Assembly: GCA_027491395.1 (NCBI GenBank)
Contig: JAOZFI010000039.1
Span: 9,147-73,146, forward strand
Source: Thermoproteota archaeon
Lineage (GTDB): Archaea > Korarchaeota > Korarchaeia > Korarchaeales > Korarchaeaceae
DNA length: 64,000 nucleotides
Direction: 5' to 3'
Positions 6,475 through 25,272 of the stretch are shown in pieces. The number at the start of each line of letters is the position of its first letter. The stretch's first letter is position 1. The position numbers were made by a program, and so were the translations under genes. The notes under the pieces are model-generated. The model worked only from the letters and a program-made list of their open reading frames with translations. It did not search any database and was not told the DNA's origin.

Positions 6475-6478
6475 TCGC

Positions 6479-7456: not shown

Positions 7457-7792
7457 AAAAAATTTAACACTCCTTTTTTGAAGTAGCTAGCTGAGAGTAA
7501 AGCCATTTTGGGATAGTTGAGGCCTCCTAGGATGGCCATCGATCGCCAGAATGAATCTCCCCCCTAGAGTGAAATCCTTGGTGACCTATGCTGTAGCTGC
7601 ATGTGAACCCTAACTTCTCATCCCTCACTGACTGCTCCGTGTGGTTTCCTCTCATTTGTAAGACCTCAGATATTAAACCCTCAAGATTCACCTTCGCGGC
7701 CAACAGGATCCATACCAGACGTTCTTGGCAGCCACTATATATAAACCTCCAGAAAGGTTTAAGAGCCCTAAAATTGATGGAAAAAGAGGAGG

Positions 7793-8443: not shown

Positions 8444-8576
8444 TCTCACTGCTCTCGTGATCTATTCCCTTCTCTTCTCTCTCCCTTGCGCGGGACATCC
8501 TCTTGCGGGAATGAGGAGTCAGCTTTCAGGCTGGAGGGAAGTACTGCTGTGAACTCAAAAGATGGGAGGGCTGGGC

Positions 8577-9464: not shown

Positions 9465-10672
9465 TCTCTCACCACCTTGACCTTAAAACCTTCAATATCA
9501 ACTATCCTCACCCTCTCCCCCTCCTCTATGCTCTCATTTGAAACGGCAGTCCAGAGCTCAGAGCCAACGAGCACCACTCCATCTCTATCCGGCCTTATAG
9601 CGACCTTAACTACTCCTGTTTTACCTATTACGTTTTCTGGACTAAGGGGACTTGTTCTTTTAGACAGGATCTCCCTTATCTTGTACAGATAGAACCCAAC
9701 AAGTCCGGAGAAAACAACTAGAGATACAATCACGGCTTCGACACTTAAGGTGGGTGCTATCAGTGGTCCAGATTCGTACACAAGCAGCAGGCCAATAGCG
9801 GAGATCACAGCGCCTGTCAGGGCTAGGAAACCGTGACCGGTCTTCAACTCGAGGAATATGGTCGTCGCTCCCATCACCATGAGTATTACAGCCGCTAGAC
9901 TCGCCCCGATGAGGCCGAACGCGTAGAGGCCCAGCACTATCATTATGGTCCCACTGGCCTCCATCACGAAGGTCGGGTGCGTCAGTCCAAGCAGCACGAG
10001 TATTATGCCTAGAATGAATATAACCCATGCATTCAGCGGATCCGTTATGACGAGGAGGAGGGATACCCTCACATCAGGGTAATATTCCTCTGTTTCTCTG
10101 GGCCAGCCCATCCTTTCCAGCGCTTCTAGAGAATTCTTCGCCGTGCAGTCCGCTATTCCATACTTCGAGGCCTCCTCAGCGGTTAGAGCTAGATTCTCCC
10201 TAACGAACAGTTCCGCAGCCGTTGAGTTCTTACCTGAAACCTCAGCTAAGCTCTTCATCCAGCTGGAGAGGGCGTTCACCACTTTCTCATCTCTCGGTCT
10301 AGGCTCGGCCGCCCCTATGGAAGATCCGGGTCCCATGCATATCTTATCCGCAGACAGTGCTATGAAGGCTCCAGCCGAGAATGCCTTTCCACCTGATGGG
10401 ATGTAGACGGCCACCCTCACCGGTGAAGAGCTGATTGTCCCTACTATCCGCTCAGTCGACTGGAGGAACCCTCCATCAGTGTTGAGGACTATGAGCACAT
10501 CCATGTCACTGCTCTCAGCAAGCTTCACTCCGGACGCGATGTACTCCGCCACACCCTCTGTGATGGTACCTTCTACCCTCAGCAGGAGGGTTCTACCACC
10601 ACTGGAGGCCTGCAGAAGAGGGGGAAGCAGGAGTGAGAGCATCAGTAATACAGTAAGCGTTGACCTTCTCAT
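9461..10672 (-). CDS. nfeD: NfeD (STOPP-like) membrane-bound serine protease
   Basis: Signal peptide, ClpP-like domain (NTDGG, AFSAG, IGAAEP, EK), TM region and C-terminal OB domain (GELWTA). Overlaps the SPFH gene. Start placed at the ATG following GGAG. Confidence 0.88.
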   Translation of the reverse strand: MRRSTLTVLLMLSLLLPPLLQASSGGRTLLLRVEGTITEGVAEYIASGVKLAESSDMDVLIVLNTDGGFLQSTERIVGTISSSPVRVAVYIPSGGKAFSAGAFIALSADKICMGPGSSIGAAEPRPRDEKVVNALSSWMKSLAEVSGKNSTAAELFVRENLALTAEEASKYGIADCTAKNSLEALERMGWPRETEEYYPDVRVSLLLVITDPLNAWVIFILGIILVLLGLTHPTFVMEASGTIMIVLGLYAFGLIGASLAAVILMVMGATTIFLELKTGHGFLALTGAVISAIGLLLVYESGPLIAPTLSVEAVIVSLVVFSGLVGFYLYKIREILSKRTSPLSPENVIGKTGVVKVAIRPDRDGVVLVGSELWTAVSNESIEEGERVRIVDIEGFKVKVVRE

Positions 10673-10973
10673 GGCTCCACTCATAAGCAGTAAGTATAGA
10701 AATTTAACCGTTGTTTTTTGGAGGACTCCCGATACCCCGGATTCTCCTTGAAGGGACGGAGAGTGTGGATGACACTTAGACACCTAGTTGCGCTAATTCT
10801 ATGTTACTATGTCGAAAATCTGTCCTATTGATGGAGGATCGCCGAGAGATGATGGGAAGATGAATCTCTCTGAGGCGTACGACCCCTCTCCCGAACCGGA
10901 AAAATCTTTTTGTTGGAAAAGGGAAAAATACATGATCTATCCAAGCTTGTGCTCCCCTATCTGAGGTCAAGAT

Positions 10974-10988
10974 TTATATTTGTCAGAT
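10974..10988 (+). promoter_or_regulatory. TATA-like box followed by TCAGAT, upstream of peptide ABC operon 2
   Basis: TTATATT-TG-TCAGAT lies 49 nt before the ATG and matches the operon 1 motif. Confidence 0.55.
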
Positions 10989-11022
10989 TTTGGGGCCTAT
11001 CTAACCATAGTGGGTGTTCTAG

Positions 11023-12726
11023 ATGAGTGGGAAAGATTGGATAGTCGTGATAGTCCTCCTGATCGTGGGGCTCCTTATAGGGTATTTTGCCGCGGGCCCT
11101 GGTAAGACAACCACTGTCACCGTGACACAGACCTCTGTCAAGACCGTGACCGTGACCCAGACTGCTGGCGCCCCTCCAGCTCCCACCACGACTAAGACGA
11201 CCACTACCCAACCCAAGGCCCAGATGAAGACCCCCGCTGATACCCTGATAATAGCTATGGATACCAGCGATGCGGTCTCTATGGATCCGGCTAGGGCTTA
11301 TGAGTTCACCTCATGCTTCGTTGTCAACCAGCTCTATGATAAGCTTGTGGATTTCGAGCTTCCTGATCTGGTCAATGTTAAGCCTGAGGTCGCTGAGAAG
11401 TGGGAAGTCAGCGAAGATGGCAAGGTTTGGACCTTCCATATAAGGAAGGGTATTAAGTTCGCTAGCGGTAATCCCCTCACCGCCGATGATGTCGTTTACT
11501 CCCTCCAGAGGGTAATTAAGCTTAAGCAGACCGCTTCTTGGGTTCTTACCCAGTTCGTCTCCACTCCCGAGCAGATAGAGAAGATCGATGACTACACCGT
11601 CAAGATAACCTTAGATAAGCCAGTAGCTCCGAGCTTCTTCCTCGCTACCCTGACGTTCACGACTTCCGCAGTCGTAGATAAGCAGGTGGTCGAGGCCCAT
11701 GCGAAGAACGGGGACATGGGAAGCGATTGGATGACCGATCACAGCGCCGGTAGCGGTCCGTTCGTCCTAGAGAAGTGGGATAGGGAAGCCGAAATAGTCC
11801 TTAAGGCCAATCCATACTACTGGAAGCCAGGTCAGCCAGCTGTGAAGAAGGTGATCATAAAGCATGTTCCCGAGCCCACGGATCAGCTCCTCCTGATAAA
11901 GAAGGGGGATGTTGACATAGCAACTGACTTGACTGCGGAGCAGGTCAAACAGGTTGAGGGTACACCCGGAATAAACGTGATAAAGGTGGAGAGGACCCAC
12001 ATAGTCTACTTGGGAATGAACGTTGCCGTGAAGCCGTTGGACAAGGAAGAGGTTAGGGATGCAATCAGGTACTGTATAGATTATGACAGCATAATAAACG
12101 ACATCCTGCTTGGAGCAGCGATAAAGTGGCAGACTGTCATTCCAAAGGGTCTGCTCGGAGCGAACCCGAAGACACCCTACAAGAAGGATGTGGCTAAGGC
12201 CAAGGAACTCTTAGCTAAGGCCGGTGTGCCCAATGGATTCACCATAGAGCTGACCACGCCGCCGACCTATCCTCAGATAGACATAGCAACCAAGATACAG
12301 GCTGACCTGGCCGAGTGCGGCATCAAGGTGAAGATCGTGCAGATGACCCAGTCCGAGATGTACGAGAAGTACAGAAAGCAAGGTCTCCAGCTTGTGCTCG
12401 CAGGTTGGGGGTCCGACTATCCGGATCCGGACAACAACGCCAAGGCTTTCGGTGACTACAGGGTGAAACAGCTCGCTTGGAGGAACTCTTGGTACGATGA
12501 CCATGCCGCCGATCTCGCCGAGAAAGCGGCCGTGGAGTTCGACAACAATAAGAGGAAGCAGATGTACCTCGAGCTCACTGACTACATACTCGACCACGGA
12601 CCCTACGCGATCCTCTACCAGACCCTCGCCCAGCACGTAGCGAGGGACTACGTGAAGAATTATCTGCCCGATCCGACGTTCTTCCTTGAGGACCTCTCCA
12701 AGGTGTCAAAGGCCGGAGGGAGCTGA
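11023..12726 (+). CDS. dppA: Peptide ABC substrate-binding protein (family 5, DdpA-like subgroup) with TM anchor and Thr-rich linker
   Basis: MDPARAYE, FASGNPLTADDVVYS, HSAGSGPF, WGSDYPDPDN. Resembles E. coli DdpA by recall. Confidence 0.92.
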   Translation: MSGKDWIVVIVLLIVGLLIGYFAAGPGKTTTVTVTQTSVKTVTVTQTAGAPPAPTTTKTTTTQPKAQMKTPADTLIIAMDTSDAVSMDPARAYEFTSCFVVNQLYDKLVDFELPDLVNVKPEVAEKWEVSEDGKVWTFHIRKGIKFASGNPLTADDVVYSLQRVIKLKQTASWVLTQFVSTPEQIEKIDDYTVKITLDKPVAPSFFLATLTFTTSAVVDKQVVEAHAKNGDMGSDWMTDHSAGSGPFVLEKWDREAEIVLKANPYYWKPGQPAVKKVIIKHVPEPTDQLLLIKKGDVDIATDLTAEQVKQVEGTPGINVIKVERTHIVYLGMNVAVKPLDKEEVRDAIRYCIDYDSIINDILLGAAIKWQTVIPKGLLGANPKTPYKKDVAKAKELLAKAGVPNGFTIELTTPPTYPQIDIATKIQADLAECGIKVKIVQMTQSEMYEKYRKQGLQLVLAGWGSDYPDPDNNAKAFGDYRVKQLAWRNSWYDDHAADLAEKAAVEFDNNKRKQMYLELTDYILDHGPYAILYQTLAQHVARDYVKNYLPDPTFFLEDLSKVSKAGGS

Positions 12727-12750
12727 GACTTCCCTCCCTTTTTCTCTTCC
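12727..12750 (+). terminator. Intra-operon pyrimidine/U-tract after the binding-protein gene
   Basis: GACTTCCCTCCCTTTTTCTCTTCC follows the stop codon. Confidence 0.5.
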
Positions 12751-12762
12751 GGGGGGTAGCTG

Positions 12763-13776
12763 TTGGACCTTAAGACGTACATATTGAGGCGTCTGGCCCT
12801 AATGTTGTTCGTCCTATTCGGAATAATTGTGATTACGTTTATCGTGTCTCATGTGATTCCTGCTGATCCTATAGGGGCCATTCTGGGACCCCAAGCTCCT
12901 CCCGAGCTTGTAGAGAAGGTTAGAAGGGAGTGGGGATTCGATAAGCCCCTTCCCGAGCAGTTCGTTGACTACATGGTGAACTTACTCCACGGTAACTTAG
13001 GCAAGTCCATAAGAACGAATAAGCCGGTGGCAGAGGACCTCATGAAGTTCTTTCCCGCGACGATCGAACTGGCAACGGCGGCGATGATAGTTGCCATAGT
13101 GATAGGGATACCCCTCGGTATAATCTCGGCCGTTAAGAAGGACAAGTGGCCCGACCACATCTCCAGAATATTTGCTCTAATGGGGGTGAGCATGCCCGTC
13201 TTCTGGCTGGGTCTCATCCTGCTCTTCGTCCTCTACTACCAGCTGGGAATATTTCCAGGGCCTGGTAGGCTGGATCCAGGGATAGAGGCTCCACCCAGAA
13301 TAACTGGCATTTTAACACTCGATAGCTTGATTACCGGGAACTTCGAGGCGTTCACGAATGCCGTATGGCATCTTATACTCCCCTCGTTCGTCTTGGGCTA
13401 CTACGCCTCTGCATCAATCACTAGGATCACTAGGACATCCTTACTCGAGGTCATGACCCAGGACTTCATAAGGACGGCCAGAGCTAAGGGCCTGCCCGAG
13501 AGGGTCGTGCTGTTCAGGCACGCCCTGAGGAACGCGCTCATACCCACTACCACCGTCATAGGGATGGCTTACGGAAGCCTGCTGGAAGGTGCGATACTCA
13601 CGGAGACCATATTCGCTTGGCCCGGATTGGGGAGGTACTCAACAGGTGCTTTCCTGTCTGTGGATTTCTTGGCGGTTATGGGCTCCACCTTACTGATAGC
13701 GGTGATCTACTCAGTGGCCAACTTGGTTGTGGACATACTCTACGCATTCCTCGATCCGAGGATAAGGTATGCCTGA
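12763..13776 (+). CDS. dppB: Peptide ABC permease (DdpB-like); TTG start
   Basis: ITFIVSHVIPADP, FFPATIELA, FIRTARAKGL, DPRIRY. Confidence 0.92.
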   Translation: MDLKTYILRRLALMLFVLFGIIVITFIVSHVIPADPIGAILGPQAPPELVEKVRREWGFDKPLPEQFVDYMVNLLHGNLGKSIRTNKPVAEDLMKFFPATIELATAAMIVAIVIGIPLGIISAVKKDKWPDHISRIFALMGVSMPVFWLGLILLFVLYYQLGIFPGPGRLDPGIEAPPRITGILTLDSLITGNFEAFTNAVWHLILPSFVLGYYASASITRITRTSLLEVMTQDFIRTARAKGLPERVVLFRHALRNALIPTTTVIGMAYGSLLEGAILTETIFAWPGLGRYSTGAFLSVDFLAVMGSTLLIAVIYSVANLVVDILYAFLDPRIRYA

Positions 13777-13788
13777 GGAGGTGCTCTC

Positions 13789-14673
13789 ATGAACTTAAGA
13801 GAGAAGGTCAGGGGCCTGATGGAGTATTTCAGATCCGAGGACTTTAAAATAACTCTAATCTTGGTGAAGAAGAGCCCTCTCACGGTCTTGGGACTCGCTC
13901 TGACCATATTCTTGGTGCTGGTGGCGATTTTCGCACCCTTCATAGCACCCTACGATCCCATAAAGCAGGACCTCAAGAATAGGCTTCAGCCCCCTAGCTG
14001 GGAGCACCCTTTCGGCACCGATCAGCTCGGAAGGGACATATTCAGCAGGGTGGTCTGGGGATCAAGGATCTCCCTGTTTATAGCCCTTATAGTTGTCGCT
14101 ATCTCATTCACCGTCGGAACTACCATAGGCATAATCTCCGGCTACTTCGGGGGTAAGGTTGACGAGGTTCTTATGAGGATCACGGACATGTTCATGGCAT
14201 TCCCCAGACTGGTACTCGCCTTGGCCGTGGCTGCCGCTCTAGGACCTGGGCTCTTCAACACCATGCTCGCCATAGCCTTCGTCTCTTGGGTCTACTACGC
14301 CAGGCTGGCTAGGGCTAGCACCCTCCAGATAAGGGAAGAGGTGTATATAGAGGCGGCTAGGGCGATAGGGGCCAGCGACAGGAGGATACTCTTCCTTCAT
14401 GTCCTCCCGGTAGTCATCGCGCCGGTAGTAGTTCAAGCCACCCTTGACATGGGCGGGACCATCCTCACCGCAGCCGGCCTCGGTTTCCTTGGACTGGGTG
14501 TCCAGCCCCCCACTCCGGAGTGGGGAGTCATGGTAAGTGAGGGGAGGAGGTTCATAACTGAACAGTGGTGGGTCTCCACATTCCCCGGTTTCGCGATACT
14601 CTTGGCAACGCTGGGCTTCAACCTGCTGGGCGACGGGATAAACGATATACTGAATGTCAGGGCGAGGAGGTGA
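13789..14673 (+). CDS. dppC: Peptide ABC permease
   Basis: HPFGTDQLGRDIFSRV, YIEAARAIGA, AAGLGFLGLG, PEWG. Confidence 0.92.
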   Translation: MNLREKVRGLMEYFRSEDFKITLILVKKSPLTVLGLALTIFLVLVAIFAPFIAPYDPIKQDLKNRLQPPSWEHPFGTDQLGRDIFSRVVWGSRISLFIALIVVAISFTVGTTIGIISGYFGGKVDEVLMRITDMFMAFPRLVLALAVAAALGPGLFNTMLAIAFVSWVYYARLARASTLQIREEVYIEAARAIGASDRRILFLHVLPVVIAPVVVQATLDMGGTILTAAGLGFLGLGVQPPTPEWGVMVSEGRRFITEQWWVSTFPGFAILLATLGFNLLGDGINDILNVRARR

Positions 14674-14677
14674 TTGA

Positions 14678-15667
14678 GTGAGCGACGACGGGAAAGGAGA
14701 GAATCTCTTGGAGATCAGGGATCTGTACGTTCAATTCCACACTCTGAGAGGCATAGTCAAGGCCATAGATGGCGTCAACTTGGAGGTGGGACATGGCGAG
14801 GTCTTGGGTCTTGTGGGGGAGACTGGCAGCGGCAAGACGGTGACGGGCCTCAGTATACTCAGGTTACTGGAGCAAAACGCCGAGATCACCGGAGGGGAGA
14901 TAATATTTCAGGGGAGAGACCTGCTCAAGCTGCCCCTCAAGGAGATCCTGAAGATAAGGGGGAGAGATATCTCAATGATTTTCCAAGAGCCGAAGGCCGC
15001 CCTGAACCCGGTCATGCAGGTGGGTGATCAGGTGGCCGAGTCCTTCCTAGTGCACGAGGAGATCTCCAAGAAGGAGGCGAGGGAGAGAGTCCTAGGGATA
15101 TTCAGGAGGGTGGGCCTCCCTGATCCCGAGAGGGTGTACAAGAGCTATCCCCACGAGCTCAGCGGGGGAATGGCTCAGAGGGTCGTGATATCCATGGCGC
15201 TCGCCCTGAAGCCGAAGCTGCTCATAGCTGACGAGCCCACCTCCGCCCTGGATGTGACAATACAGGCCCAGATAATGGACCTCTTTCGCGAGCTGATCAA
15301 CGAGATGGGAACCAGCGTCATCTACATAACACACGACATGGCCCTAGCTGCTGAGATAAGCGATAGGATCGCGGTGATGTATGCCGGCAGAATAGTGGAG
15401 GTGGCCGACACTGAAACGATATTCGAGAATCCCCTACATCCTTACACCCAGGGACTGCTGAAATCCATACCCAAACCGGGATATAGGGGGAAGCTCTTCT
15501 CGATGGAGGGGGAGATACCGCCCTTGATAAATTCACCCCCTGGCTGCAGGTTCCATCCCCGCTGCCCTAAGAGATTCGAACCGTGCGACAAGGAGGTGCC
15601 CAAGCTGATGGAGGTAGAACCAAGGCATAAGGTAGCCTGCTTCCTGTTCGGAGGTGCGTCCAAATGA
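14678..15667 (+). CDS. dppD: Peptide ABC ATPase
   Basis: [33 protein letters not shown]. Confidence 0.93.
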
Positions 15668-16659
15668 TGCTGGAGGTTCAGGATCTCAAGAAGTACTTCC
15701 CCGTACGCGGTGGCGTGATGATGAGGGTGATCGGTCATGTGAAAGCGGTGGACGGGGTCTCCATATCCATAGAGAAGGGAGAAGTCTTCGGCCTGGTGGG
15801 CGAGTCCGGGAGCGGTAAGACGACCTTGGGCAGGACGGTCCTCAAGCTGACCAAGCCCACCGGTGGGAGGATAATCTTCGATGGAAGGGACATAACCGAT
15901 CTCTCGGGCAAGGATCTCATTCCCCTGAGGAGGGAGATGCAGATAGTCTTCCAGGACCCGTACAAGGCCTTGCATCCGAGGAAGAGGGTGAAGGACATAG
16001 TTGGTGAACCCCTGATCATACACGAGGGGACCAGCGATATGGAAGTGAGGAGGAGGGTAGCGGAGATGCTCAAGCTGGTGGGGCTGAATGTGGAGCACAT
16101 GGACAGGTACCCGCACGAGTTCTCGGGAGGGCAGAGGCAGAGGATAGTCATAGCTAGGGCCCTGATCCTGAGGCCCAAGTTCATGGTGCTCGACGAACCT
16201 ACCTCTGCCTTGGATGTGAGCGTTCAGGCTAAGATACTCAACCTGCTGAGCGATCTCAAGGAACAGTTTGACCTCACCTTCCTACTGATAAGCCACAACT
16301 TGGCGGTGGTGCAGCATATGAGCAACAGGATCGGCGTGATGTACCTCGGGAAGCTCATGGAGGTAGCTTCCTCGCAGGAACTCTTCGAGAAACCGCTTCA
16401 TCCCTATACGAAGGCCCTCATATCGGCCATCCCTGTACCCGACCCTAAGCTAGCTAAGAAGAAGAGGAAGATGACCCTCAGGGGCGAGATACCGAGTCCC
16501 TTGCATCCGCCCTCCGGCTGCAGGTTCCACACTAGGTGCCCGTTCGCTAAGGAGATCTGCGAGAGGGAGGAACCACCTTTGAGGGAGGTGGAGCCAGGCC
16601 ACTGGGTGGCGTGTCACTTCTGGGATGAGTTGAGGGAGGTAGGAGTGTTAAATGCCTGA
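15664..16659 (+). CDS. dppF: Peptide ABC ATPase
   Basis: [33 protein letters not shown]. Confidence 0.93.
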
Positions 16660-16804
16660 GGATGGGGATAAGGAGGTTGAGCTCGAATGGAAGGATTACC
16701 TAGCCTTCGTGATCGCCCTCTTGACAACCAACCTCCTTCCCCTCATTCTGATAGGGATTCTAATGGTGATCCTCTCGTACCTCATCGTTCAACTCTTCGG
16801 CTGA
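16652..16804 (+). CDS. 50-aa hydrophobic membrane protein, not in the ORF track
   Basis: [50 protein letters not shown]. The ATG overlaps the dppF end and has GGAGTG upstream. Confidence 0.7.
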
Positions 16805-18062
16805 CCTCCTCCAACGACTTTTCGATTATGGAGAGGGCCTCCTCCACCTGTTCAGCCGTTATCGTTATCGGTGGCGTCAGCTTGATCACATTGTGATGCC
16901 TGCCCACGGTTATGGCCAGCAAGCCGTTTCTGAAGAGGGCGTCCTTCAGCTCAGACGCTAACCTCTTCGAGGGCCTCCCACCCTCCAGTATCTCAATTCC
17001 CTGCACGCATCCGATCCCCCGGGCATCGACTACATGATTGTATCTGGTGACGAACTCCCTTAACCCTCTCATCATCTCTTCTCCTCTTCTCAAGGCATTT
17101 TCCAAGAGATTTTCCTCTCTGATCGCCTCTATAGTCGCTAAGGCGGCCAAGACTCCCAAGTAGTGGCCAGCGTATGTGCCGAGGCTGCCGCCGCTACACA
17201 GATACCACTCCTCCACGAGATCGCCCCTGAAGGCAATAGCCGCTAGGGGAAGACCGCCCGCTATCCCCTTGCCCATGACTATGATGTCGGGCTCCACCCC
17301 GTGATGCTCTACCCCGAACCACCTACCCGTCCTTCCGAAACCCGTGTAGACCTCGTCGATTATGAGTAGAGCGCCTGTCCTCTCCGCAATCCCCCTGAGG
17401 CCCCTGAAGAAGCTGGAGGGTGGGAATAATACGCCCCCATGAGACTGGAGCGGTTCCACTATGATACCAGCCAAGTCCTCGGGTTCCACTGCCCTACCGA
17501 TGACCTCCTCCTCTATGAAATTAAGTACAGCATGAGAGCACTCCTCGCAGTCATCAGCCTTTAGAGGACATCTGAAACAGTTGGGGTAGGGCGCATATAC
17601 GGCTTCAGAGGTCCTAGGTGCGACCCGCCTCATCCCCTCCGTGGGAGAGGATTGCAAAGCATATCCAGTGAGCCCGTGATAGGCGCCGTAAAAAGAGAGG
17701 ATGACCTGCTTTCCCGTGGCGAACTTGGCCAGCTGAATAGCGAAATCACTCGCCTCGCTTCCAGTGGTGGCATACGCTATGGAGGCATTCTCGACGGGGA
17801 CGAGAGACCTGAGTTCCTCCCCGAGCTTCAGGAGAGGCTCGTTCGGGGCCAGTAAACCTGAAAAACCCGTTAACTTCTCCACCCCCTCCTTTACTTTCGA
17901 CACTACTTTGGGGTGGGCTTGACCGAGGGAGGTAGCCGCTCCGCTGAAATCCAAGAACCTCCTTCCATCTCTCGTCCATATTTCCGCCTTAAACCCTCTT
18001 TCGACGATGATTGGAAAGGAGGGAGGGCACTTGAATACCTTCGGGTAGAAATCTTCCAGCAT
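16782..18062 (-). CDS. Class III PLP-dependent aminotransferase or amino acid racemase/epimerase-like enzyme
   Basis: FLDF, TGSEA, GAYHG, DEVYTGFGRTG, MGKGIAGG (PLP Lys), GTYAG. Confidence 0.85.
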   Translation of the reverse strand: MLEDFYPKVFKCPPSFPIIVERGFKAEIWTRDGRRFLDFSGAATSLGQAHPKVVSKVKEGVEKLTGFSGLLAPNEPLLKLGEELRSLVPVENASIAYATTGSEASDFAIQLAKFATGKQVILSFYGAYHGLTGYALQSSPTEGMRRVAPRTSEAVYAPYPNCFRCPLKADDCEECSHAVLNFIEEEVIGRAVEPEDLAGIIVEPLQSHGGVLFPPSSFFRGLRGIAERTGALLIIDEVYTGFGRTGRWFGVEHHGVEPDIIVMGKGIAGGLPLAAIAFRGDLVEEWYLCSGGSLGTYAGHYLGVLAALATIEAIREENLLENALRRGEEMMRGLREFVTRYNHVVDARGIGCVQGIEILEGGRPSKRLASELKDALFRNGLLAITVGRHHNVIKLTPPITITAEQVEEALSIIEKSLEEVSRRVER

Positions 18063-18102
18063 AGGAATATGCGATCCTCATTCCTAAATACCTTGAAGGA
18101 AT

Positions 18103-18729
18103 TCAGCCTCCGGCCATGTAGATGGCCTCCTCAGCTATCTGGACCGCGTGGTCCGCCATCCTCTCGAGGTATCTGAGGATGAGTGTCATGGCCACAGCGC
18201 AAGCTGGGACCTTCTCAACACCAGTCAGGACCCTCTCCTTTAGGTAAGACTCGTAGGCCCCGTCCACCTTGTCATCCATCTCCATAACCCTCCTAGCTAG
18301 CTCTATATCCCTGGTCTCCACCGCCCTCAGGGCCTCCTTCACCATGGTCTCAGTTATCTCAGCTGGCTCAACCACGAGCTGGATGTCGCATTGGCTCATG
18401 TCCCTGAACAGGACTAGGGTCTGGGCTATGTTCCTAGCGTACCTGCCAAGCCTAACCAGCCCATAACTTATCTCCATGAGGGATATGAGGGTTCTCAGGT
18501 CCGACGCCATTGGCTGGAATCTGGCTAGGATCTCACTTATCTTGATTCTCAACTGTCCGTGGGTGAAGGACAGGATTTGAGCTCCCTTATCAACCTCCTC
18601 TAGGACGGTAGTAGGATCTGCCCTGCCTAGGAAAGCCTCGACGCACTTCTTGGTTAGTGAGAGGGATAACTCACTCGACTTGACGACCTCGGAGAAGACG
18701 GATTTTATCTCGGCATCCAATAACGCCAT
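18103..18729 (-). CDS. phoU: PhoU-family helical-bundle protein
   Basis: FQPMASDLR, MDDKVD, RYLERMADHAVQIAE. Start placed at MALLD. Confidence 0.8.
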   Translation of the reverse strand: MALLDAEIKSVFSEVVKSSELSLSLTKKCVEAFLGRADPTTVLEEVDKGAQILSFTHGQLRIKISEILARFQPMASDLRTLISLMEISYGLVRLGRYARNIAQTLVLFRDMSQCDIQLVVEPAEITETMVKEALRAVETRDIELARRVMEMDDKVDGAYESYLKERVLTGVEKVPACAVAMTLILRYLERMADHAVQIAEEAIYMAGG

Positions 18730-18802
18730 TTTCACATATCCCTTGGTCGAACTTACCCGCCCGATTTTATTATGTTTCCGCATGCTCAGGTAGGAGATCG
18801 AT

Positions 18803-19138
18803 ATGAGCGAGGAGGGATCTTTTAGCTTGGTGTTCGTGGCCTTCATGTTCATAGGAATGGGCGTAGGTTATCTGCTTGGGAACACAGCTGCTGGGCTCTT
18901 CATAGGAATGGGAGTGGGGTTCTTGGCCATGGCCTACCTCAAACCTAGGGAGAAGGGGATAGACTTGAGGAAGGGGCCTTGGGGCTCGGTGGCACTTGCT
19001 TTGGTGGGCTTGGGCTTCATCTTGGGTGGGACATCGCTGCTTCTGGGCTTCGAGATACCTTGGGATAAGTTGGGAGGGGTGTTCCTCATTCTGATGGGTT
19101 TGGCCTTCCTGGCCATGGCTCTGGGAAGGAGGGGTTAG
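18803..19138 (+). CDS. Small Gly-rich multi-pass membrane protein
   Basis: About four hydrophobic segments; GGAG SD; no family recognised. Confidence 0.65.
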   Translation: MSEEGSFSLVFVAFMFIGMGVGYLLGNTAAGLFIGMGVGFLAMAYLKPREKGIDLRKGPWGSVALALVGLGFILGGTSLLLGFEIPWDKLGGVFLILMGLAFLAMALGRRG

Positions 19139-19140
19139 AG

Positions 19141-20295
19141 TTAGCCGAATATGGCCCTACCGAAGTTTTCTCTCTCCCTCAGTAGCCTGTATCTGCCACC
19201 CTCAAGGGCGACGACCGCTGGTAACGGTCTGAGGTTGTATCTGCTAGCCATGGAGAACCCGTAGGCCCCGACATCGGCAATTACCACGAGGTCCCCTTCT
19301 CTGACCCTCGGCAGGTCGTACTCGCCAAAGAAGTCCGCTGACTCGCAGACGGGACCAGCAATCAGCACTTTCTCCTCAGGACCCTCGGACTCCGCCAGAA
19401 TCCTGTGCTTTGCTCCATAGAGCGCGGGCCTGAGGAGGTCGTTCATTCCAGCATCCAACAAAACCCACTTTCTCCCACCTATCTCCTTCACGTAGTTCAC
19501 CTTGGCAACGAGATAACCCGCGTCTCCAACTATGTACCTACCGGATTCCACGAATATGTGAACCCCTAATTCCCTGGATGTCTCACACACGATTTCAGCG
19601 TACTCTCCTAGAGGGAACTCTCCGGACCCTTCATAGGATATGCCCAAGCCACCTCCCAGATCAAGCACCTCCACCCCACCGAACTGCTCAACCAGGGATC
19701 GGAGCACATCCAACGCGTTGATAAAGGGTTCAACGCTCATTATCTGGCTCCCTACGTGTGTATGAAAGCCCCTCGTATTCATGTCACTTCTCAAAGACCT
19801 GAGGAGTGAGAGGGCCCTTTCAGGGGGGAGACCGAACTTCGTTCCTGGTCCTGCCGTCACGAGGCTCGGATGAGCCCCAGCTCCCAGTCCGGGGTTCACC
19901 CTCACCATGACATCCGTTCCCCCCAAATCTCTAAGGGTTCTAGCCTCGGATTCACTCTCAAGTGAGACTGTAGCCCCGTAACTAGCAGCTTCCGCGAGGT
20001 CCTGCCTTGAGGGACTCGGCCCCACGAGCACCACTTTCTCAGGGGGAACACCGGCCCACCTGGCGAGCATCACGCCGTAACAGGAGGGAACGGTGGCTCC
20101 AGAACCTAAGGAGGAGAGCATCCTGACGAGCTCCGGCTCGTGATTGGCTTTATATGCGTATGCAATCGTGTGAGGGCATTTCAGAGCGTTATCCAACCTC
20201 AGGAAGTTCTCTCTAACTCTGTCCATGTCCAGCAGGTAAATGGGGGTCCCGAACTCCTCCGCCACATCGCTAACATCGATCCCGGCTACTCTCAA
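19141..20295 (-). CDS. lysA: Diaminopimelate decarboxylase
   Basis: YAYKAN, RVNP...H...T...KFG, HVGSQI, DLGGG, ESGRY, GPVCES, GAYGFSMASRYN. Confidence 0.85.
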   Translation of the reverse strand: MRVAGIDVSDVAEEFGTPIYLLDMDRVRENFLRLDNALKCPHTIAYAYKANHEPELVRMLSSLGSGATVPSCYGVMLARWAGVPPEKVVLVGPSPSRQDLAEAASYGATVSLESESEARTLRDLGGTDVMVRVNPGLGAGAHPSLVTAGPGTKFGLPPERALSLLRSLRSDMNTRGFHTHVGSQIMSVEPFINALDVLRSLVEQFGGVEVLDLGGGLGISYEGSGEFPLGEYAEIVCETSRELGVHIFVESGRYIVGDAGYLVAKVNYVKEIGGRKWVLLDAGMNDLLRPALYGAKHRILAESEGPEEKVLIAGPVCESADFFGEYDLPRVREGDLVVIADVGAYGFSMASRYNLRPLPAVVALEGGRYRLLRERENFGRAIFG

Positions 20296-20419
20296 GGGCT
20301 CACCCTACGGCACAGAAATGTACCTGTACCAGTTAATTATCCTGACCAGTCGATACGCCCCGTCTACACCGACACTTCACCCTTTATATGTTGGCGGGGA
20401 GCTCCTCCCCGGTGGTCCA

Positions 20420-20986
20420 TTGAGACTCAACATCAAGGTCATAGCACCAGTGATCATGGCCGCCATCATGCTTATCGGAGTGATCAGCATGAGCTCCCCG
20501 CCCTCCCCCTTGGGGAGCGAGGAGTGGCCCCTCCCCCCAGCAGACATACCTCTCGAGAACATAACCTCCAACATGAACATCTCCGATTTCGTCTTCTTCG
20601 GAGGTCAGCCCGTAGCGAGTTTGGGAACGGGGTTAGACTTCCCGTTGGGGAGCACGGCCTTCTACTACGTTGGAGCTTACAAGAATAATACCTTCGTGGC
20701 ATTCGTTGTGGCCAAACTTCCAGATCCGCAGTACTCGGTTCAGTTTGGCGGAAGGGCCCTGAACTCCCTGAAGGAGAACCTCCCTGAGGAGAATGTGAGG
20801 TACTTGGTCACCAACGAGGGAGGCTTCTTGCAGTACCAAGGCACCAATCAGACCCTAGTGCTGTGGTACGGGCACTCTTGGTACTTCGAGATCATGGCGG
20901 GAAAGGGAGGGGACTTGGGGAGGGAAGCAGTTCAGGCGGTTAAGAGGGCCATCTACGAGGCTATACAGAAGGTTCAGAGGGCCTGA
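20420..20986 (+). CDS. Membrane-anchored extracellular protein of unknown function
   Basis: TTG start after GGTGG, N-terminal TM, Ser/Pro linker, aromatic-rich domain (LWYGHSWYFEI). The longer ORF overlaps lysA. Confidence 0.6.
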   Translation: MRLNIKVIAPVIMAAIMLIGVISMSSPPSPLGSEEWPLPPADIPLENITSNMNISDFVFFGGQPVASLGTGLDFPLGSTAFYYVGAYKNNTFVAFVVAKLPDPQYSVQFGGRALNSLKENLPEENVRYLVTNEGGFLQYQGTNQTLVLWYGHSWYFEIMAGKGGDLGREAVQAVKRAIYEAIQKVQRA

Positions 20987-22095
20987 ACCTTACCTCCCTC
21001 CTCGAAAACCACCTTCAACTTAAGCTTCTCCTCCTTCACCTTGAGATTACCCAACCCGGGCCCATCCGGCACTGTCCTGTGCCCGTCCTCGTAACCGGCT
21101 CCACCCTCGACGAAGTCCTCCTTGAGTGATATGTCGGAGTCCAGATCCGTCGTTACCAAGTTCCTCGTGGCCGCAGCGAAGTGGACTCCCGCGGTTATAC
21201 TGACCCCTCCTTCCATCATGCACCCTATCATGTTGGGTATGCCTGCCGCCTCGCTTATCGCGGCTATCCTCCTAGCCTTGAGGAGGCCTCCCGCCTTCGT
21301 CAGCTTTATGTTGATGTAGTCGGCGGCTCCCATCTCCACAACTTCGAGCGCGTCCTCAGGGGTGTGCACGGACTCGTCAGCCATTATCGGGATTGGGCTC
21401 ATACTTGTGAGCACGGCCATGCCCTCGAGGTCATCCCACCTAACGGGCTGCTCCGCCAGCTCCAAGTCGTACCTGTCCATCTCGGTGAGGGCCCTCATGG
21501 CCTCTTTGACGGTCCATCCCTGATTAGCGTCTATCCTCAGCCTTATGTCCTTCCCCACAGCGTCCCTCACCGCCCTGACCCTGGCCACATCCTCCTCCAC
21601 TCCGGTTCCCACCTTGAGCTTGATGACCCTGAACCCCCTCTCAACTATCCTCAGAGCCTCCTCGGCCATCTCCTCCGGTCTCTTTATCCCTATGGTGAAG
21701 TCCGTCTCGACCTTGTCCCTGTACCCGCCCAGCAGGTCCCTCACCTTGACTCCGAGGATCTTCCCCTTGAGATCGAAGACAGCCGTTTCTAGGGCGAACT
21801 TCGCTGAATTGTTACCCAAGATTGCCTTGTCCATCTTCTCCTCTATTCTCTCGACATCCATTGGGTCCTCCCCTATCACCGCTGGGGCTAGAGTGTGCAT
21901 GGCAGCTACTATGGTGTGCTCGCTCTCACCGATTATCCTCCTCGCTGGTGAGGCCTCGCCCCACCCAACTCTGCCCTCATCATCGAATACCTTTACAACT
22001 ACATCCGTGCTGCTCGTGGAAGTGCCCAGCGAGATGGTAAACGGCTGTAAGTAGGGAAGATCTACGGTATAGACCTCTATCCTCTTAATGGACAT
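20974..22095 (-). CDS. L-Ala-D/L-Glu (dipeptide) epimerase, enolase superfamily MLE subgroup
   Basis: KLKVG, DANQG, EQP, ADES, INIKLTKAGG, GCMME and the DLD signature. Confidence 0.87.
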   Translation of the reverse strand: MSIKRIEVYTVDLPYLQPFTISLGTSTSSTDVVVKVFDDEGRVGWGEASPARRIIGESEHTIVAAMHTLAPAVIGEDPMDVERIEEKMDKAILGNNSAKFALETAVFDLKGKILGVKVRDLLGGYRDKVETDFTIGIKRPEEMAEEALRIVERGFRVIKLKVGTGVEEDVARVRAVRDAVGKDIRLRIDANQGWTVKEAMRALTEMDRYDLELAEQPVRWDDLEGMAVLTSMSPIPIMADESVHTPEDALEVVEMGAADYINIKLTKAGGLLKARRIAAISEAAGIPNMIGCMMEGGVSITAGVHFAAATRNLVTTDLDSDISLKEDFVEGGAGYEDGHRTVPDGPGLGNLKVKEEKLKLKVVFEEGGKVQAL

Positions 22096-22192: not shown

Positions 22193-23281
22193 TTGATGGC
22201 CAAGAAGTGTCCCGATGATAATCCGTATCATGTGGTAGCCGAGCTTCAAGAGCCTCTAGGAGATGGAAGGGTCAGGTGCCTGGCCTGCCCAAGGAAGTGC
22301 ATAATCCCACCGGGAATGTACGGCCTGTGCAAGACCAAGCTCAATGTGGATGGTACGCTCTGTGAGGTGAACTACTCGAAGGTCAGCAGCGTGGCCATGG
22401 ATCCCATAGAGAAGAAGCCCTTCTTCCACTTCATGCCGGGCAGCTATGCCTACAGCATAGGCACCGTGGGCTGCAATCTCTTCTGCGAACACTGTCAGAA
22501 TTGGGTGATAAGCCAATCGGATCCCGAGAGCTTCCGCTACCTCAGAGATCTGCCCCCAGAGGAGGCTGTCAGGGAAGCTGTGGAGCTAGGTGCCTCGAGC
22601 ATAGCCTTCACCTACAACGAGCCCACCATAGTGAGCATGGAGTGGGTCGTTGACGCGGCCAAGCTGGCCAAGGACTTCGGTCTCGCAACTCTCAGCGTGA
22701 CCAACGGTTACTGGAGTGAGGAGGCTAGGGAGAGGTTAATCCCCCTGATAGATGCCGCCAATGTGGATGTCAAGGCATTCACCGACGACTTCTATAGGAA
22801 GGTGACCAAGGCCCCGTTTCTGAGGCCCGTCTTAGACACTGTACTCGCTCTTAAAAGGGCCGGAAAGCATGTTGAGGTGACTTACCTCATAATACCCACC
22901 CTAAATGATGGTGAAGAGGAGATCAGGACTTTCGCTAGGTGGATAGTTCAGGAGGTCGGAGACGACACTCCTGTTCACTTCTCACGTTTCTACCCGCATT
23001 TCAGGATGAAGAACCTTCCCCCGACTCCGATCGAATACATAAAGAGAGCTATCAGGATAGCTAGGGATGAGGGTGTTAAATTCGTTTACTCAGGGAATGT
23101 CCCGGGCGATCCAGACGAGAACACCTATTGTCCAAGGTGCGGCACTCTACTGATAAGAAGATACGGATTTACCATAGAAAAGTGCAATCTTTCTGAGGAC
23201 TCGAGGTGCCCCCAATGCGGCGAATCCATAACCATAGTGGGTCCTTGCACTGAATCCGGGGGCTGGCTGGGTTACTTATGA
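22193..23281 (+). CDS. amrS: AmmeMemoRadiSam-system radical SAM enzyme (PflA-like)
   Basis: CLACPRKC, DPIEKKPFFHF, CNLFCEHCQN, FTYNEP, HFSRFYP, C-terminal CPRCG/CPQCG. Confidence 0.85.
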   Translation: MMAKKCPDDNPYHVVAELQEPLGDGRVRCLACPRKCIIPPGMYGLCKTKLNVDGTLCEVNYSKVSSVAMDPIEKKPFFHFMPGSYAYSIGTVGCNLFCEHCQNWVISQSDPESFRYLRDLPPEEAVREAVELGASSIAFTYNEPTIVSMEWVVDAAKLAKDFGLATLSVTNGYWSEEARERLIPLIDAANVDVKAFTDDFYRKVTKAPFLRPVLDTVLALKRAGKHVEVTYLIIPTLNDGEEEIRTFARWIVQEVGDDTPVHFSRFYPHFRMKNLPPTPIEYIKRAIRIARDEGVKFVYSGNVPGDPDENTYCPRCGTLLIRRYGFTIEKCNLSEDSRCPQCGESITIVGPCTESGGWLGYL

Positions 23282-23358
23282 TCGGTTGATCATTTTGCCA
23301 GTTGACATGGGTTTCACCGAAAACCTTTTTAAGCAATACCCCTAATGTCCGGCGGCCG

Positions 23359-25272
23359 GTGAGATCCTTGGAGACCATCATAGAAGCCGGCGTCGATATA
23401 TTGGGGAAGATCCCTTGGAAGGACGCGTCTTTTGAGGAGAAGGTACAGGCTTTGAACGAGATGTGGAAGGAAGGAGAGCAGATTAAAAAGCTACTAGAGG
23501 AGAGCACTGATCTAGAGGAGGCAAGGAAGAAAATCTACGACTACTTGGCATCGCTCGAATGGGAGCTCAGGGTAGGCAGGATAAAGCTTCATAGGATCGA
23601 TTACTGGCTTGCATTGGAAGCCATAAAGAACTTCAGGAACATAATCTCACCGGAAAACGAGAAGATAGCCACCTTCAGCACCCTTGAGTATTTGTGGCGG
23701 CTAGCGAAGGAAGGAGAGAGGTTCCTCGACAAGGTAAGCATGGGCTTCATCCTCGAGTTCAAGTACCTGTTCAAGGCGATTCACGGGAACTCTAACTACG
23801 CCAAGGGATGGATCCACGATCTCTTGGGCGAGGAAAAGGCCAAGATAGTCCACGAGTTCCTTAGGATAGGCGGAAGGGAGGGCGCCATTCTCAGGTCCGA
23901 GTACCTCGATGAAGTGGCCAAGCTGGTGAAGCAGTATTTCGGCAGGTTCACTTTCGGCCTAGACCCCAAAGTCATAGAGAAGAGAGAGCAAAACATCCAG
24001 AAGATCCTCGATTACTTCGGAGCCACCAGAGACGACTGGATGGACTACAAGTGGCACTTCAAGCATGTGTTCAAGAGGCTGGAGCACGTGGACATGCTGA
24101 AGGAGCTAGTTCCCCTGACGGAGGAGGATGTCGAGAACATAAAGATGGCCATAGAGAACAGGATACCCTTCGGCATCACTCCATACTACCTGCACCTCTT
24201 CGACTTCGAGAGGGCCGACAGGAAGTGGGATCCCCAAGTCAGGGCTCAGGTGATCCCGCCAAGGTGGTACCTCGAGGAGATGATCAAGCACAGGCAGGAC
24301 AGGAACTACGTGTTCGACTTCATGAAGGAGCACGATACCTCCCCGCTGGAGCTCGTTACTAGGAGGTATCCGATGATAGCCATATTGAAGGTGGCTGACA
24401 CGTGTCCGCAGATATGCGTCTACTGCCAGAGGAACTGGGAGATAGAGGAGGCCTTCAGTCCAGTGGGCATACCGCCGAAGGCCCTAATAGACAAGGCCAT
24501 AGAGTGGTTCGCCAACCATGAGTCCATGATGGATGTGCTACTCACCGGCGGTGACCCTGCAATCCTGAACGATAGGTACATGGAGTACATCCTCAGTCGT
24601 CTGGCTGAGATAGACCACATCAAGAGCATCAGAATAGGGAGCAGAATAGTCGTAACCGTGCCTATGAGAATCACCAAGGAATACGCGGAGATGCTGAGTA
24701 GTTTCATCGAACCCAACAAGAGGAACGTGATGTTCGTCACCCACGTTGAGAGCGCAGAGGAGGTCACCCCCTACATGGCCAAGGCTGTGAAGACCCTAAG
24801 AGACCACGACATCTACGTGTACAACCAGCAGGTCTACCAGTTCGCCACCTCTAGGAGGTTCCAGTATGTCCTCACGAGGATAGCCCTCAAGATAATAGGT
24901 ATAGATCCGTATTACAACTTCTATCCGAAGGGCAAGTTCGAGCAGAGGGATTTCCTCGTTCCCGTCGCAAGACTTGCCCAAGAGAGGAAGGAGGAGGCAA
25001 GGCTCCTACCCGGTCAGTATAGGACCGACGAGCCGGTGTTTAACGTCCCCGCTCTTGGAAAGAACCACATAAGGGCTTGGCAGGATCGTGAACTCATAGC
25101 CATAATGCCGGAGACTGGAAGCAGGATATATGTGTGGCATCCGTGGGAGAAGGGCATAGCTCCGGTTGATCCGTGGCCCTACGTGGATGTCCCCATCTAC
25201 GACTACCTGATGAGGCTTAAGGAGGTCGGGGAGGACATAAAGGAGTACGAGAGCATCTGGTACTACTACTGA
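23359..25272 (+). CDS. Long-form KamA-family radical SAM aminomutase-like protein (~637 aa)
   Basis: W.DYKWHF, FGITPYY, CPQICVYCQR, LTGGDP, IRIGSR, NQQV, VPALGK. GTG start chosen ~30 nt after CTTTTTAAG; the ORF track starts at 23302. Confidence 0.82.
   Translation: MRSLETIIEAGVDILGKIPWKDASFEEKVQALNEMWKEGEQIKKLLEESTDLEEARKKIYDYLASLEWELRVGRIKLHRIDYWLALEAIKNFRNIISPENEKIATFSTLEYLWRLAKEGERFLDKVSMGFILEFKYLFKAIHGNSNYAKGWIHDLLGEEKAKIVHEFLRIGGREGAILRSEYLDEVAKLVKQYFGRFTFGLDPKVIEKREQNIQKILDYFGATRDDWMDYKWHFKHVFKRLEHVDMLKELVPLTEEDVENIKMAIENRIPFGITPYYLHLFDFERADRKWDPQVRAQVIPPRWYLEEMIKHRQDRNYVFDFMKEHDTSPLELVTRRYPMIAILKVADTCPQICVYCQRNWEIEEAFSPVGIPPKALIDKAIEWFANHESMMDVLLTGGDPAILNDRYMEYILSRLAEIDHIKSIRIGSRIVVTVPMRITKEYAEMLSSFIEPNKRNVMFVTHVESAEEVTPYMAKAVKTLRDHDIYVYNQQVYQFATSRRFQYVLTRIALKIIGIDPYYNFYPKGKFEQRDFLVPVARLAQERKEEARLLPGQYRTDEPVFNVPALGKNHIRAWQDRELIAIMPETGSRIYVWHPWEKGIAPVDPWPYVDVPIYDYLMRLKEVGEDIKEYESIWYYY

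Follow-up and report, generated by a model that had tools for sequence, protein, structure and literature searches.

The gene clusters most like the one described here are bacterial murein-recycling loci. In Bacillus subtilis, the dppABCDE-ykfABCD locus encodes the Dpp importer, the LD-carboxypeptidase YkfA, the L-Ala-D/L-Glu epimerase YkfB, and the gamma-D-Glu-diamino-acid endopeptidase YkfC. In Escherichia coli the murein tripeptide pathway is made up of the uptake system MppA-OppBCDF, the amidase MpaA, the epimerase YcjG, and LysA, with ycjG, mpaA, and mppA as neighboring genes; a further E. coli system, ddpXABCDF, combines an importer with the D-Ala-D-Ala dipeptidase DdpX, and its substrate, D,D-dipeptides, is only putative in the E. 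coli annotation. Archaea have no murein wall. Homologues of dipeptide epimerases of the L-Ala-D/L-Glu type nevertheless occur in these murein-less organisms, where their presence has been called unexplained (PMC3605383). The subject of this study is a 64-kb stretch of DNA, referred to here as the window, from a korarchaeon metagenome-assembled genome (MAG; GenBank assembly GCA_027491395.1, contig JAOZFI010000039.1, positions 9,147 to 73,146). It contains genes for a peptide ATP-binding cassette (ABC) importer, a class III pyridoxal phosphate (PLP) enzyme, a diaminopimelate (DAP) decarboxylase (lysA), and a dipeptide epimerase. These genes belong to the families named, and their neighborhood is conserved in other archaea. 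We favor, by a modest balance of probability, the reading that they form a cytoplasmic salvage module for D-amino-acid peptides from bacterial peptidoglycan, the substrates and the order of the steps being those that we infer. The literature searched contained nothing specific on an archaeal system of this kind, or on a link of Korarchaeota or archaea to DAP, lysine biosynthesis, dipeptide epimerases, or peptidoglycan scavenging.

Gene content of the locus

Open reading frames of the window were listed and searched with Pfam and NCBIfam profiles. All of the genes named in a preliminary description of this DNA (the peptide ABC operon, the class III PLP enzyme, lysA, and the epimerase) were real and correctly placed. 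A PhoU-domain gene located between the PLP gene and lysA was additional to that list. The genes of the locus are as follows:

11023-12726, plus strand: SBP_bac_5 binding protein (SBP1) of a Dpp-type peptide ABC importer (PF00496, 330 bits)
12763-13776, plus strand: ABC permease of the DppB/DdpB type (BPD_transp_1 and its N-terminal domain)
13789-14673, plus strand: ABC permease of the DppC/DdpC type (OppC_N and BPD_transp_1)
14678-15667, plus strand: ABC ATPase of the OppD/DppD type (ABC_tran and oligo_HPY)
15664-16659, plus strand: ABC ATPase of the OppF/DppF type (ABC_tran and oligo_HPY)
16782-18062, minus strand: PLP enzyme of the class III aminotransferase fold (Aminotran_3, PF00202)
18103-18852, minus strand: PhoU-domain protein (PF01895; TIGR02135 at 115 bits, below its cut-off of 130)
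19141-20295, minus strand: lysA, diaminopimelate decarboxylase (TIGR01048 at 357 bits, cut-off 298)
20420-20986, plus strand: conserved hypothetical protein of about 188 amino acids with an N-terminal transmembrane anchor (no Pfam or NCBIfam match)
20974-22095, minus strand: MR_MLE dipeptide epimerase, enolase superfamily, MLE subgroup (PF02746, MR_MLE_N, and PF13378, MR_MLE_C)

Conservation of the neighborhood in other archaea

Neighborhoods were reached through homologues of the epimerase and of the PLP enzyme, and their flanks were examined in nine archaeal lineages. The arrangements found, with our locus numbers, were the following:

Window group (PLP enzyme 88-100% identical) and L008: epimerase, hypothetical, LysA, PhoU, PLP enzyme, ABC operon
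L009, L034, L036, and L037: epimerase and PLP enzyme separated by 10 bp and followed by the ABC operon; lysA not present within 10 kb
L001 (Candidatus Korarchaeum sp.): PhoU, LysA, PLP enzyme, ABC operon; epimerase 7 kb away
L039: epimerase and PLP enzyme; PhoU and LysA 6 kb away
Methanodesulfokora L003, L035, and L043: NlpC/P60 gene divergent from the epimerase gene, then AsnC, LysA, PLP enzyme, binding protein
L023 and L041 (Desulfurococcales-related): LysA divergent from PLP enzyme and epimerase, then the ABC operon
L024 (Desulfurococcales archaeon): ABC operon divergent from PLP enzyme and epimerase
L053: M20 peptidase divergent from the PLP enzyme; epimerase 5 kb and binding protein 9 kb away

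The epimerase gene was found no more than 7 kb from the PLP gene in every one of the nine lineages. A full Dpp-type ABC operon was adjacent in six of them, and two more had the binding-protein gene only; lysA was present in the neighborhood in six. Because the clustering is conserved in relatives, we conclude that it is more than chance, and absence of the cluster from relatives, which had been named beforehand as a result that would count against the idea, was not what we observed.

In L023 the binding protein, permease C, and PLP enzyme were 74%, 72%, and 52% identical to those of the window (binding proteins of the L023 and L024 modules were 70-74% identical to SBP1), whereas the epimerase was only 40% and LysA only 33% identical, even though L023 LysA passes TIGR01048 at 382 bits. 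Since these partners are non-orthologous in the two lineages, separate recruitment of an epimerase and a DAP decarboxylase to a PLP-ABC core is suggested. In L005, whose epimerase is 86% identical to that of the window, an otherwise syntenic site lacked lysA, the PLP enzyme, and the ABC operon and contained no remnants of them; the block thus behaves as an accessory unit. The distant archaeal epimerase homologues of L006 and L007 (49-61% identity) had no such cluster, so the module is not common to all archaeal dipeptide epimerases.

Two of the neighborhoods had further genes in their flanks. In L007 (Thermoprotei MAG, 8505-19466), an M24 peptidase gene lies immediately upstream of the epimerase gene (49% identity), and genes for a GH3 glycosidase and a beta-lactamase-family protein (PF00144) lie 6-8 kb downstream, with no lysA and no PLP enzyme; this locus could represent a different murein-related context. 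In L003 (Methanodesulfokora, 516-7581), the region upstream of the module contains a saccharopine dehydrogenase-family gene, a second class III aminotransferase gene, and a set for arginine deiminase, an amino-acid permease, and ornithine carbamoyltransferase, and from these gene families it is an amino-acid catabolic neighborhood.

An amidase homologue beside the epimerase in Methanodesulfokora

A pointer to murein came from Methanodesulfokora, in which the gene divergent from the epimerase gene encodes a 403-amino-acid SH3b-NlpC/P60 protein. Its best solved relative is DvLysin (3m1u), and it also matches the Bacteroides YkfC orthologues 3pvq and 3npf (dipeptidyl-peptidase VI in the PDB) and Bacillus cereus YkfC (3h41). 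DvLysin is a gamma-D-Glu-A2pm amidase (A2pm, diaminopimelate); a Tyr at the position of its residue A211 is reported to limit the enzyme to free stem peptides, and the A211Y substitution to convert DvLysin to the recycling type (PMC4600125). The Methanodesulfokora protein has Tyr at this position, as do 23 homologues, and it keeps the YGWG, DCS, PRN, and GH motifs. No signal peptide was found in it, and for that reason we expect that it would act on imported peptides. Judged by its sequence, it is the MpaA/YkfC-type step that is missing from the window module.

This protein had two close relatives, followed by bacterial homologues at about 42% identity. Because those nearest further homologues are bacterial, horizontal acquisition from bacteria is indicated, and because only the two close relatives were found, Korarchaeum-type genomes, the window lineage included, appear to be without it. 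A Clostridium homologue also adjoins an MR_MLE epimerase gene. Of the components that mark murein recycling, the window has the importer and the epimerase and no amidase, and an amidase homologue stands by the orthologous epimerase only in Methanodesulfokora.

The dipeptide epimerase

The epimerase of the window is 98% identical to an NCBI entry named dipeptide epimerase from Candidatus Korarchaeota archaeon; other matches were from Candidatus Korarchaeum sp. and Candidatus Methanodesulfokora. Among solved structures the closest is the L-Ala-D/L-Glu epimerase YkfB of B. subtilis (1tkk, 293 bits), followed by an Enterococcus dipeptide epimerase, and YcjG of E. coli is only 30% identical. Alignment with YkfB showed that the catalytic residues are kept (KxK at 158-162, IKLKVG; the second Lys at 262, NIKLTKAGG), as are the metal ligands (DANQ, EQPV, and ADES) and the DLD motif at residues 317-319. 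The protein thus has all of the features of the dipeptide epimerase family, namely the two domains, KxK, the second Lys, the carboxylates, and DxD. The DLD motif had been read as a signature of L-Ala-D/L-Glu epimerases, a reading we withdraw, since DxD marks dipeptide epimerases in general. The equivalog models for L-Ala-D/L-Glu epimerases gave scores below their cut-offs (NF041118, 265 bits with a cut-off of 500; NF011708, 125 bits with a cut-off of 343).

The class III PLP enzyme

The PLP enzyme had as its best solved relative the Ala/Ser racemase of Pyrococcus horikoshii (9wqz; 285 bits, 38% identity), and scored 255 bits against the broad-specificity Pyrococcus racemase (9wrf) and 224 bits against E. 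coli GabT. Identity to the racemases was 34-38%. It reached no NCBIfam equivalog cut-off, those of the transaminase equivalogs included: the racemase equivalogs NF004171 and NF045634 gave 286 bits (cut-off 639) and 264 bits (cut-off 800). Racemase-type models as a whole scored 264-343 bits and argD models 218-221 bits.

The alignment with GabT placed L131, H208, Y239, and K394 of the PLP enzyme at the positions of R141, E211, Q242, and R398, and these four residues were invariant in seven orthologues (five from Korarchaeia and two from Desulfurococcales-related lineages). Three of the positions, K394 (see below) among them, also set the enzyme apart from the Pyrococcus racemases: at the position of E211 it has His208 (QSHGG) and the racemases have Asp, in QGD(A)G, and at the position of Q242 it has Tyr239 (DEVYTG) and the racemases keep DEVQTG. 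After YHG, GabT has Arg, the racemases have Gln or Met, and the PLP enzyme has Leu. The YHG motif itself had been taken as a mark of the racemase-type members; because E. coli GabT also has AYHG, it is no such mark. The concern that the enzyme might be a plain gamma-aminobutyrate or ornithine transaminase was not borne out, given that the equivalents of R141, E211, Q242, and R398 are absent and the best solved relatives are racemases. We predict racemase or epimerase activity for it, in preference to that of a 2-oxoglutarate transaminase.

Within this subfamily the Korarchaeia sequences are at least 69% identical and three further sequences about 51% identical, after which identity drops to 38% with generic class III proteins; a scan of the genome collection with the PLP enzyme returned only three close loci. 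These comparisons define a narrow new subfamily, to which the PLP enzyme belongs and in which active-site residues are altered. Residues 161-175 contain a CxxC-x7-CxxC cluster (NCFRCPLKADDCEEC) in a loop that is absent from the racemases and from GabT. This cluster, which may be a metal site, was conserved in four of the five Korarchaeia orthologues. In L001 it is truncated, and L023 and L024 have an incomplete form of it; on account of those three sequences, we do not use it to define the subfamily.

Within the closest relatives of the window (L010-L012, 88-99% identical to it), lysA was 85-93% and the PLP enzyme 88-92% identical, and most of the flanking genes (ABC, epimerase, radical SAM) were better conserved, at 94-99%. 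This difference suggests relaxed or diversifying selection on lysA and the PLP gene, or recombination.

LysA and the diaminopimelate route

The best solved relatives of LysA are all DAP decarboxylases (2p3e, 1tuf, and 2yxx). The aligned motifs AYKAN (containing the PLP-binding Lys), HxHxGSQ, GGGLG, DAGMNDLLRP, CESAD, GAYG, and YNLRP are conserved, lining up position by position with those of the enzymes from Aquifex and Methanocaldococcus (2p3e and 1tuf). With these DAP-site motifs kept and the TIGR01048 cut-off passed, we accept the earlier assignment of the predicted product as a DAP decarboxylase.

Genes for dapB, dapF, dapL, dapD, or dapE were found neither in the window nor in the gene lists of the examined neighborhoods. 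Genes of the dihydrodipicolinate synthase (DHDPS) family were present in the covered loci, one at 49609-50511 of the window, about 29 kb from lysA, and two in L053. The window gene scored 195 bits against E. coli YagE, which is a KDG (2-keto-3-deoxy-galactonate) aldolase, and about 150 bits against any solved DapA. Being nearer to YagE, and falling short of the dapA cut-off (198.7 bits, cut-off 206), it was rejected as a DapA candidate.

The peptide importer

SBP1 has an N-terminal membrane anchor followed by a Thr-rich linker. Among solved structures it is closest to a peptide-binding protein (8upi) and to DppA of E. coli, and at the family level its sequence is that of a cluster-C peptide binder. 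The Asp equivalent to DppA D408, which we take to form the salt bridge with the N-terminal ammonium group of the peptide, is kept (GWGSD, residue 465), and the region around DppA R355 is deleted.

The importer proteins were compared by BLASTP with their E. coli K-12 paralogues of the Ddp, Dpp, Opp/Mpp, Nik, and Gsi systems. SBP1 scored equally well against DdpA and DppA (205 and 204 bits, 29-31% identity) and far lower against MppA and OppA (106 and 105 bits). The permease encoded at 12763-13776 was closest to DdpB (48% identity, 288 bits; DppB, 273 bits), and that encoded at 13789-14673 to DdpC (50% identity, 276 bits). The top NCBIfam match of the latter was the D,D-dipeptide permease model PRK09881 at 348 bits, under the cut-off of 434; it also scored 326 bits with the Opp2C nickel permease model, over the cut-off of 300. 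NikA and CntA models matched SBP1 at 165 and 127 bits. The resemblance to DdpA and DdpB proposed earlier, with uptake of D-Ala-D-Ala in mind, was thus found again in the permeases but was weak, and because DdpA ties with DppA and the DdpC model stays under its cut-off, it is not diagnostic of D,D-dipeptide uptake.

SBP1 is 35% identical overall to the binding protein of a second operon in the window (1934-7456), and the first 52 or so residues of the two proteins, covering the anchor and the Thr-rich linker, are near-identical. The near-identity of these leaders suggests gene conversion or a shared leader module.

Proposed salvage pathway

The pathway that we propose would begin with import, by the membrane-anchored DppA-type binding protein and the ABC translocator, of stem-peptide fragments with a free N terminus; candidates are L-Ala-gamma-D-Glu-mDAP(-D-Ala), where mDAP is meso-DAP, and L-Ala-D-Glu, mDAP-D-Ala, and D-Ala-D-Ala. 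The enolase-type epimerase would then act on a dipeptide (L-Ala-D-Glu or mDAP-D-Ala) and invert its C-terminal D-residue, as a result of which ordinary dipeptidases could cut it. The racemase-like PLP enzyme would invert the remaining D-center, most simply that of free D-Ala or D-Glu, and LysA would decarboxylate the D-center of mDAP to yield L-Lys. The gamma-D-Glu-mDAP bond would require an amidase, for which only Methanodesulfokora has a gene within the cluster. In sum, an archaeon that ferments peptides would gain a usable L-amino acid from each non-proteinogenic stereocenter of the stem peptide. The original murein-scavenging idea is strengthened by the conserved neighborhood and by the Methanodesulfokora amidase homologue; its details of Ddp-type uptake, specificity for L-Ala-D/L-Glu, and a role for the KamA-family gene (see below) are not supported.

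Several observations weigh against this pathway. The ABC operon on the plus strand is convergent with the PLP gene on the minus strand, so that the module is not one transcript, as the caveat of mixed strands in the preliminary description had already indicated. No recognizable MpaA, YkfC, LD-carboxypeptidase, or DdpX was found in the window or in the Korarchaeum-type relatives, and for the window the absence of MpaA- and DdpX-type peptidases agrees with what had been noted before. In three of the nine lineages there is no lysA within 10 kb. The ligand of SBP1 cannot be read from its sequence, and binding of murein peptides is a prediction. In the PLP enzyme, Lys394 (NVIKLTPP) replaces the carboxylate-binding Arg that the Pyrococcus racemases keep (NVIRITPP).

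A further point concerns the epimerase. The position of YkfB Arg24 (PFKTALRTV), a residue of the 20s loop that we take to bind the gamma-carboxylate of Glu, is Gly in the window epimerase and in all of the Korarchaeia orthologues (PFTISLGTS). E. coli YcjG has an Arg in the same loop, and the Clostridium epimerase encoded beside the YkfC-like amidase has the identical sequence PFKTALRTV. Three solved dipeptide epimerases, presumably not Glu-specific, were all without the 20s-loop Arg in the alignment. Because this Arg is missing, L-Ala-D-Glu may not be the substrate, and the protein stands as a dipeptide epimerase with DLD whose assignment to L-Ala-D/L-Glu is in doubt. The substrate is probably a murein-derived dipeptide with a C-terminal D-residue. 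A candidate alternative is mDAP-D-Ala, which is released from peptidoglycan by DL-endopeptidases (PMC4600125).

Alternative explanations

The strongest alternative is a general salvage of D-residues from any peptide, for example heat-racemised peptides of vents or hot springs, with no murein link and with lysA as a lysine-biosynthesis gene that is nearby by chance. We think this unlikely, although it has appreciable weight. It would account for a constant core of PLP enzyme and epimerase, usually with the ABC importer, from which lysA is missing in three of the nine lineages; for an epimerase without the Glu-binding Arg, resembling hydrophobic-dipeptide epimerases in this respect; and for a PLP enzyme whose closest characterized relatives are Pyrococcus racemases for growth on free D-amino acids. 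DNA related to the window occurs in hydrothermal-type metagenomes, the kind of source from which the window itself came. This explanation does not account for a DAP-specific decarboxylase beside the module in six of the nine lineages, in the form of two LysA types only 33% identical, for the gamma-D-Glu-A2pm amidase homologue adjoining the epimerase in Methanodesulfokora, or for the fact that L005 has lost lysA along with both the PLP enzyme and the ABC operon.

A different possibility concerns the PLP enzyme alone, which might act on no free alpha-amino acid at all and instead invert the N-terminal residue of a D-peptide, or the D-center of free or peptide-bound DAP or D-Glu. Paired with the C-terminal-acting epimerase, it would convert D,D- or mixed dipeptides (D-Ala-D-Ala and mDAP-D-Ala) to L,L-dipeptides without prior hydrolysis. 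The loss of the Arg at Lys394, the residues His208 and Tyr239, and the tight pairing with the epimerase, whose gene adjoins the PLP gene in five of the nine lineages (with a gap of 10 bp in L009), are compatible with this idea and do not demonstrate it; we regard it as rather doubtful.

That the locus is part of a de novo synthesis of lysine through DAP is very unlikely. In that case LysA would be biosynthetic, the class III enzyme would be an N-acyl-DAP aminotransferase like DapC or ArgD, and the transporter and epimerase would be unrelated neighbors. LysA does pass its equivalog model, the E. coli class III transaminase ArgD serves as DapC, and the DHDPS-family gene came close to the dapA cut-off. 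However, that homologue is nearer to YagE than to DapA, the five other dap genes sought were missing from the window and the neighborhood gene lists, and the PLP enzyme is without the dicarboxylate-binding residues of the aminotransferases (no equivalents of R141, E211, Q242, and R398) and scores lower with argD and dapC-like models than with racemase-type models. The genes that constantly accompany the PLP gene, moreover, encode an epimerase and a peptide importer and are not dap genes, and the block is dispensable in L005.

Import of nickel, or of a metallophore or opine-type ligand processed by the neighboring enzymes, is suggested by the Opp2C score of permease C and the NikA and CntA matches of the binding protein but is the most improbable reading, because the binding protein scores best against DppA-type peptide binders and keeps the Asp equivalent to D408, and because the partners include a dipeptide epimerase and, in L053, an M20 peptidase.

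Accessory and neighboring genes

The genes that lie around the proposed peptidoglycan-peptide module are listed here:

1934-7456, plus strand: second complete Dpp/Opp-type ABC operon
22193-23281, plus strand: AmmeMemoRadiSam radical SAM gene, between the epimerase and KamA-family genes
23302-25272, plus strand: KamA-family radical SAM protein of 656 amino acids (TIGR00238, 332 bits)
26259-31148: branched-chain amino-acid ABC operon
42896-45690, minus strand: GlcD-like FAD-linked oxidase (TIGR00387 at 381 bits, under the cut-off) and CCG/4Fe-4S subunit
49609-50511, minus strand: DHDPS-family gene (dapA model below its cut-off, as given above)

The window also encodes an aldehyde:ferredoxin oxidoreductase. 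With the second Dpp/Opp operon, the branched-chain ABC operon, and the GlcD-like pair, this predicted gene content fits a peptide-fermenter lifestyle. Scans of the window for tRNA genes and with Rfam gave no matches, and no RNA sequencing run was found to contain this region.

The PhoU-domain gene adjoins lysA in the window group, L008, L001, and L039. It persists in L005, where lysA, the PLP enzyme, and the ABC operon are absent. Its product may be a regulator, and its membership in the module is uncertain. The same uncertainty applies to the hypothetical gene at 20420-20986, which sits between lysA and the epimerase gene on the opposite strand. Its start is probably the TTG at 20420, its product contains a WPLPP motif, and its 3' end overlaps that of the epimerase gene by 13 nt. 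In L010-L012, L008, L005, L001, and L039 an orthologue (44-95% identity) adjoins the epimerase gene or lysA; in L005 the gene is kept without the rest of the module.

The KamA-family protein has an N-terminal extension of about 230 amino acids with no family match and scored under the cut-offs for glutamate, lysine, and arginine 2,3-aminomutases. Only the window group and L005 have its gene together with that of the epimerase, and the neighborhoods of most lineages are without it. Because the KamA/AmmeMemoRadiSam pair is present in L005 without the module, it appears to be independent of it. We therefore rejected the KamA-family gene as a part of the module, and with no consistent linkage to the cluster the suggestion that its product takes lysine further is not supported.

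The GlcD-like/CCG pair is a conserved neighbor of the module, standing near it also in L001, L008, and L009. From its domains it could be a D-lactate or D-2-hydroxyacid dehydrogenase.

Comparison with known systems

If the proposed pathway is correct, the neighborhood offers a concrete reason for the presence of dipeptide epimerases in archaea, in that thermophilic peptide fermenters may harvest the stem peptides of their bacterial neighbors. It would define at the molecular level how archaea of vents and hot springs can use bacterial necromass, and an apparently orphan lysA would be accounted for. Two archaeal lineages would have put together one catabolic logic out of partners that are not orthologous, and in a third an amidase obtained horizontally from bacteria would have been included. 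The PLP enzyme would represent a newly identified subfamily and a candidate thermostable racemase or epimerase.

Among the known systems, the B. subtilis dpp-ykf locus resembles the archaeal module in the clustering of a Dpp-type ABC importer with an enolase-superfamily dipeptide epimerase, YkfB being the best solved relative of the latter. The resemblance extends to Methanodesulfokora, where a leaderless SH3b-NlpC/P60 gene stands beside the epimerase gene as YkfC stands beside YkfB, and the same is seen in Clostridium. In contrast to B. subtilis, the window has no equivalents of YkfA or YkfC, and its epimerase has no equivalent of Arg24. The archaeal module has in addition a class III PLP enzyme and lysA, neither of which, as we understand its composition, is part of the Bacillus locus. 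Because the archaeal host has no murein, the module would serve for feeding and not for recycling.

The E. coli murein tripeptide pathway follows a similar order of import, release of mDAP and L-Ala-D-Glu, epimerization, and decarboxylation of DAP to lysine. It differs in that the binding protein of the window matches DppA and DdpA (204-205 bits) far better than MppA (106 bits), YcjG is only distantly similar to the window epimerase (30% identity), MpaA has no homologue in the window, and lysA lies within the cluster. The two permeases have their best E. coli matches in the ddpXABCDF system (DdpB and DdpC), whose DdpA ties with DppA for the binding protein; the identities are 29-50%, the cut-off of the DdpC equivalog was missed, and no DdpX gene was found in the window.

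The Pyrococcus racemases (Ala/Ser racemase PH0782 and broad-specificity racemase PH0138) share with the PLP enzyme the class III fold and a residue other than Arg after YHG. The PH0138 gene also clusters with a putative transporter gene (PMC13628549). The window subfamily is separated from these racemases by its 34-38% identity, by the His, Tyr, and Lys substitutions, and by its invariable pairing with a dipeptide epimerase. The archaeal module thus differs from known recycling loci in four respects: a host without murein, a constant partner in the form of a new class III PLP enzyme, the position of lysA inside the cluster, and an epimerase without the Glu-binding Arg.

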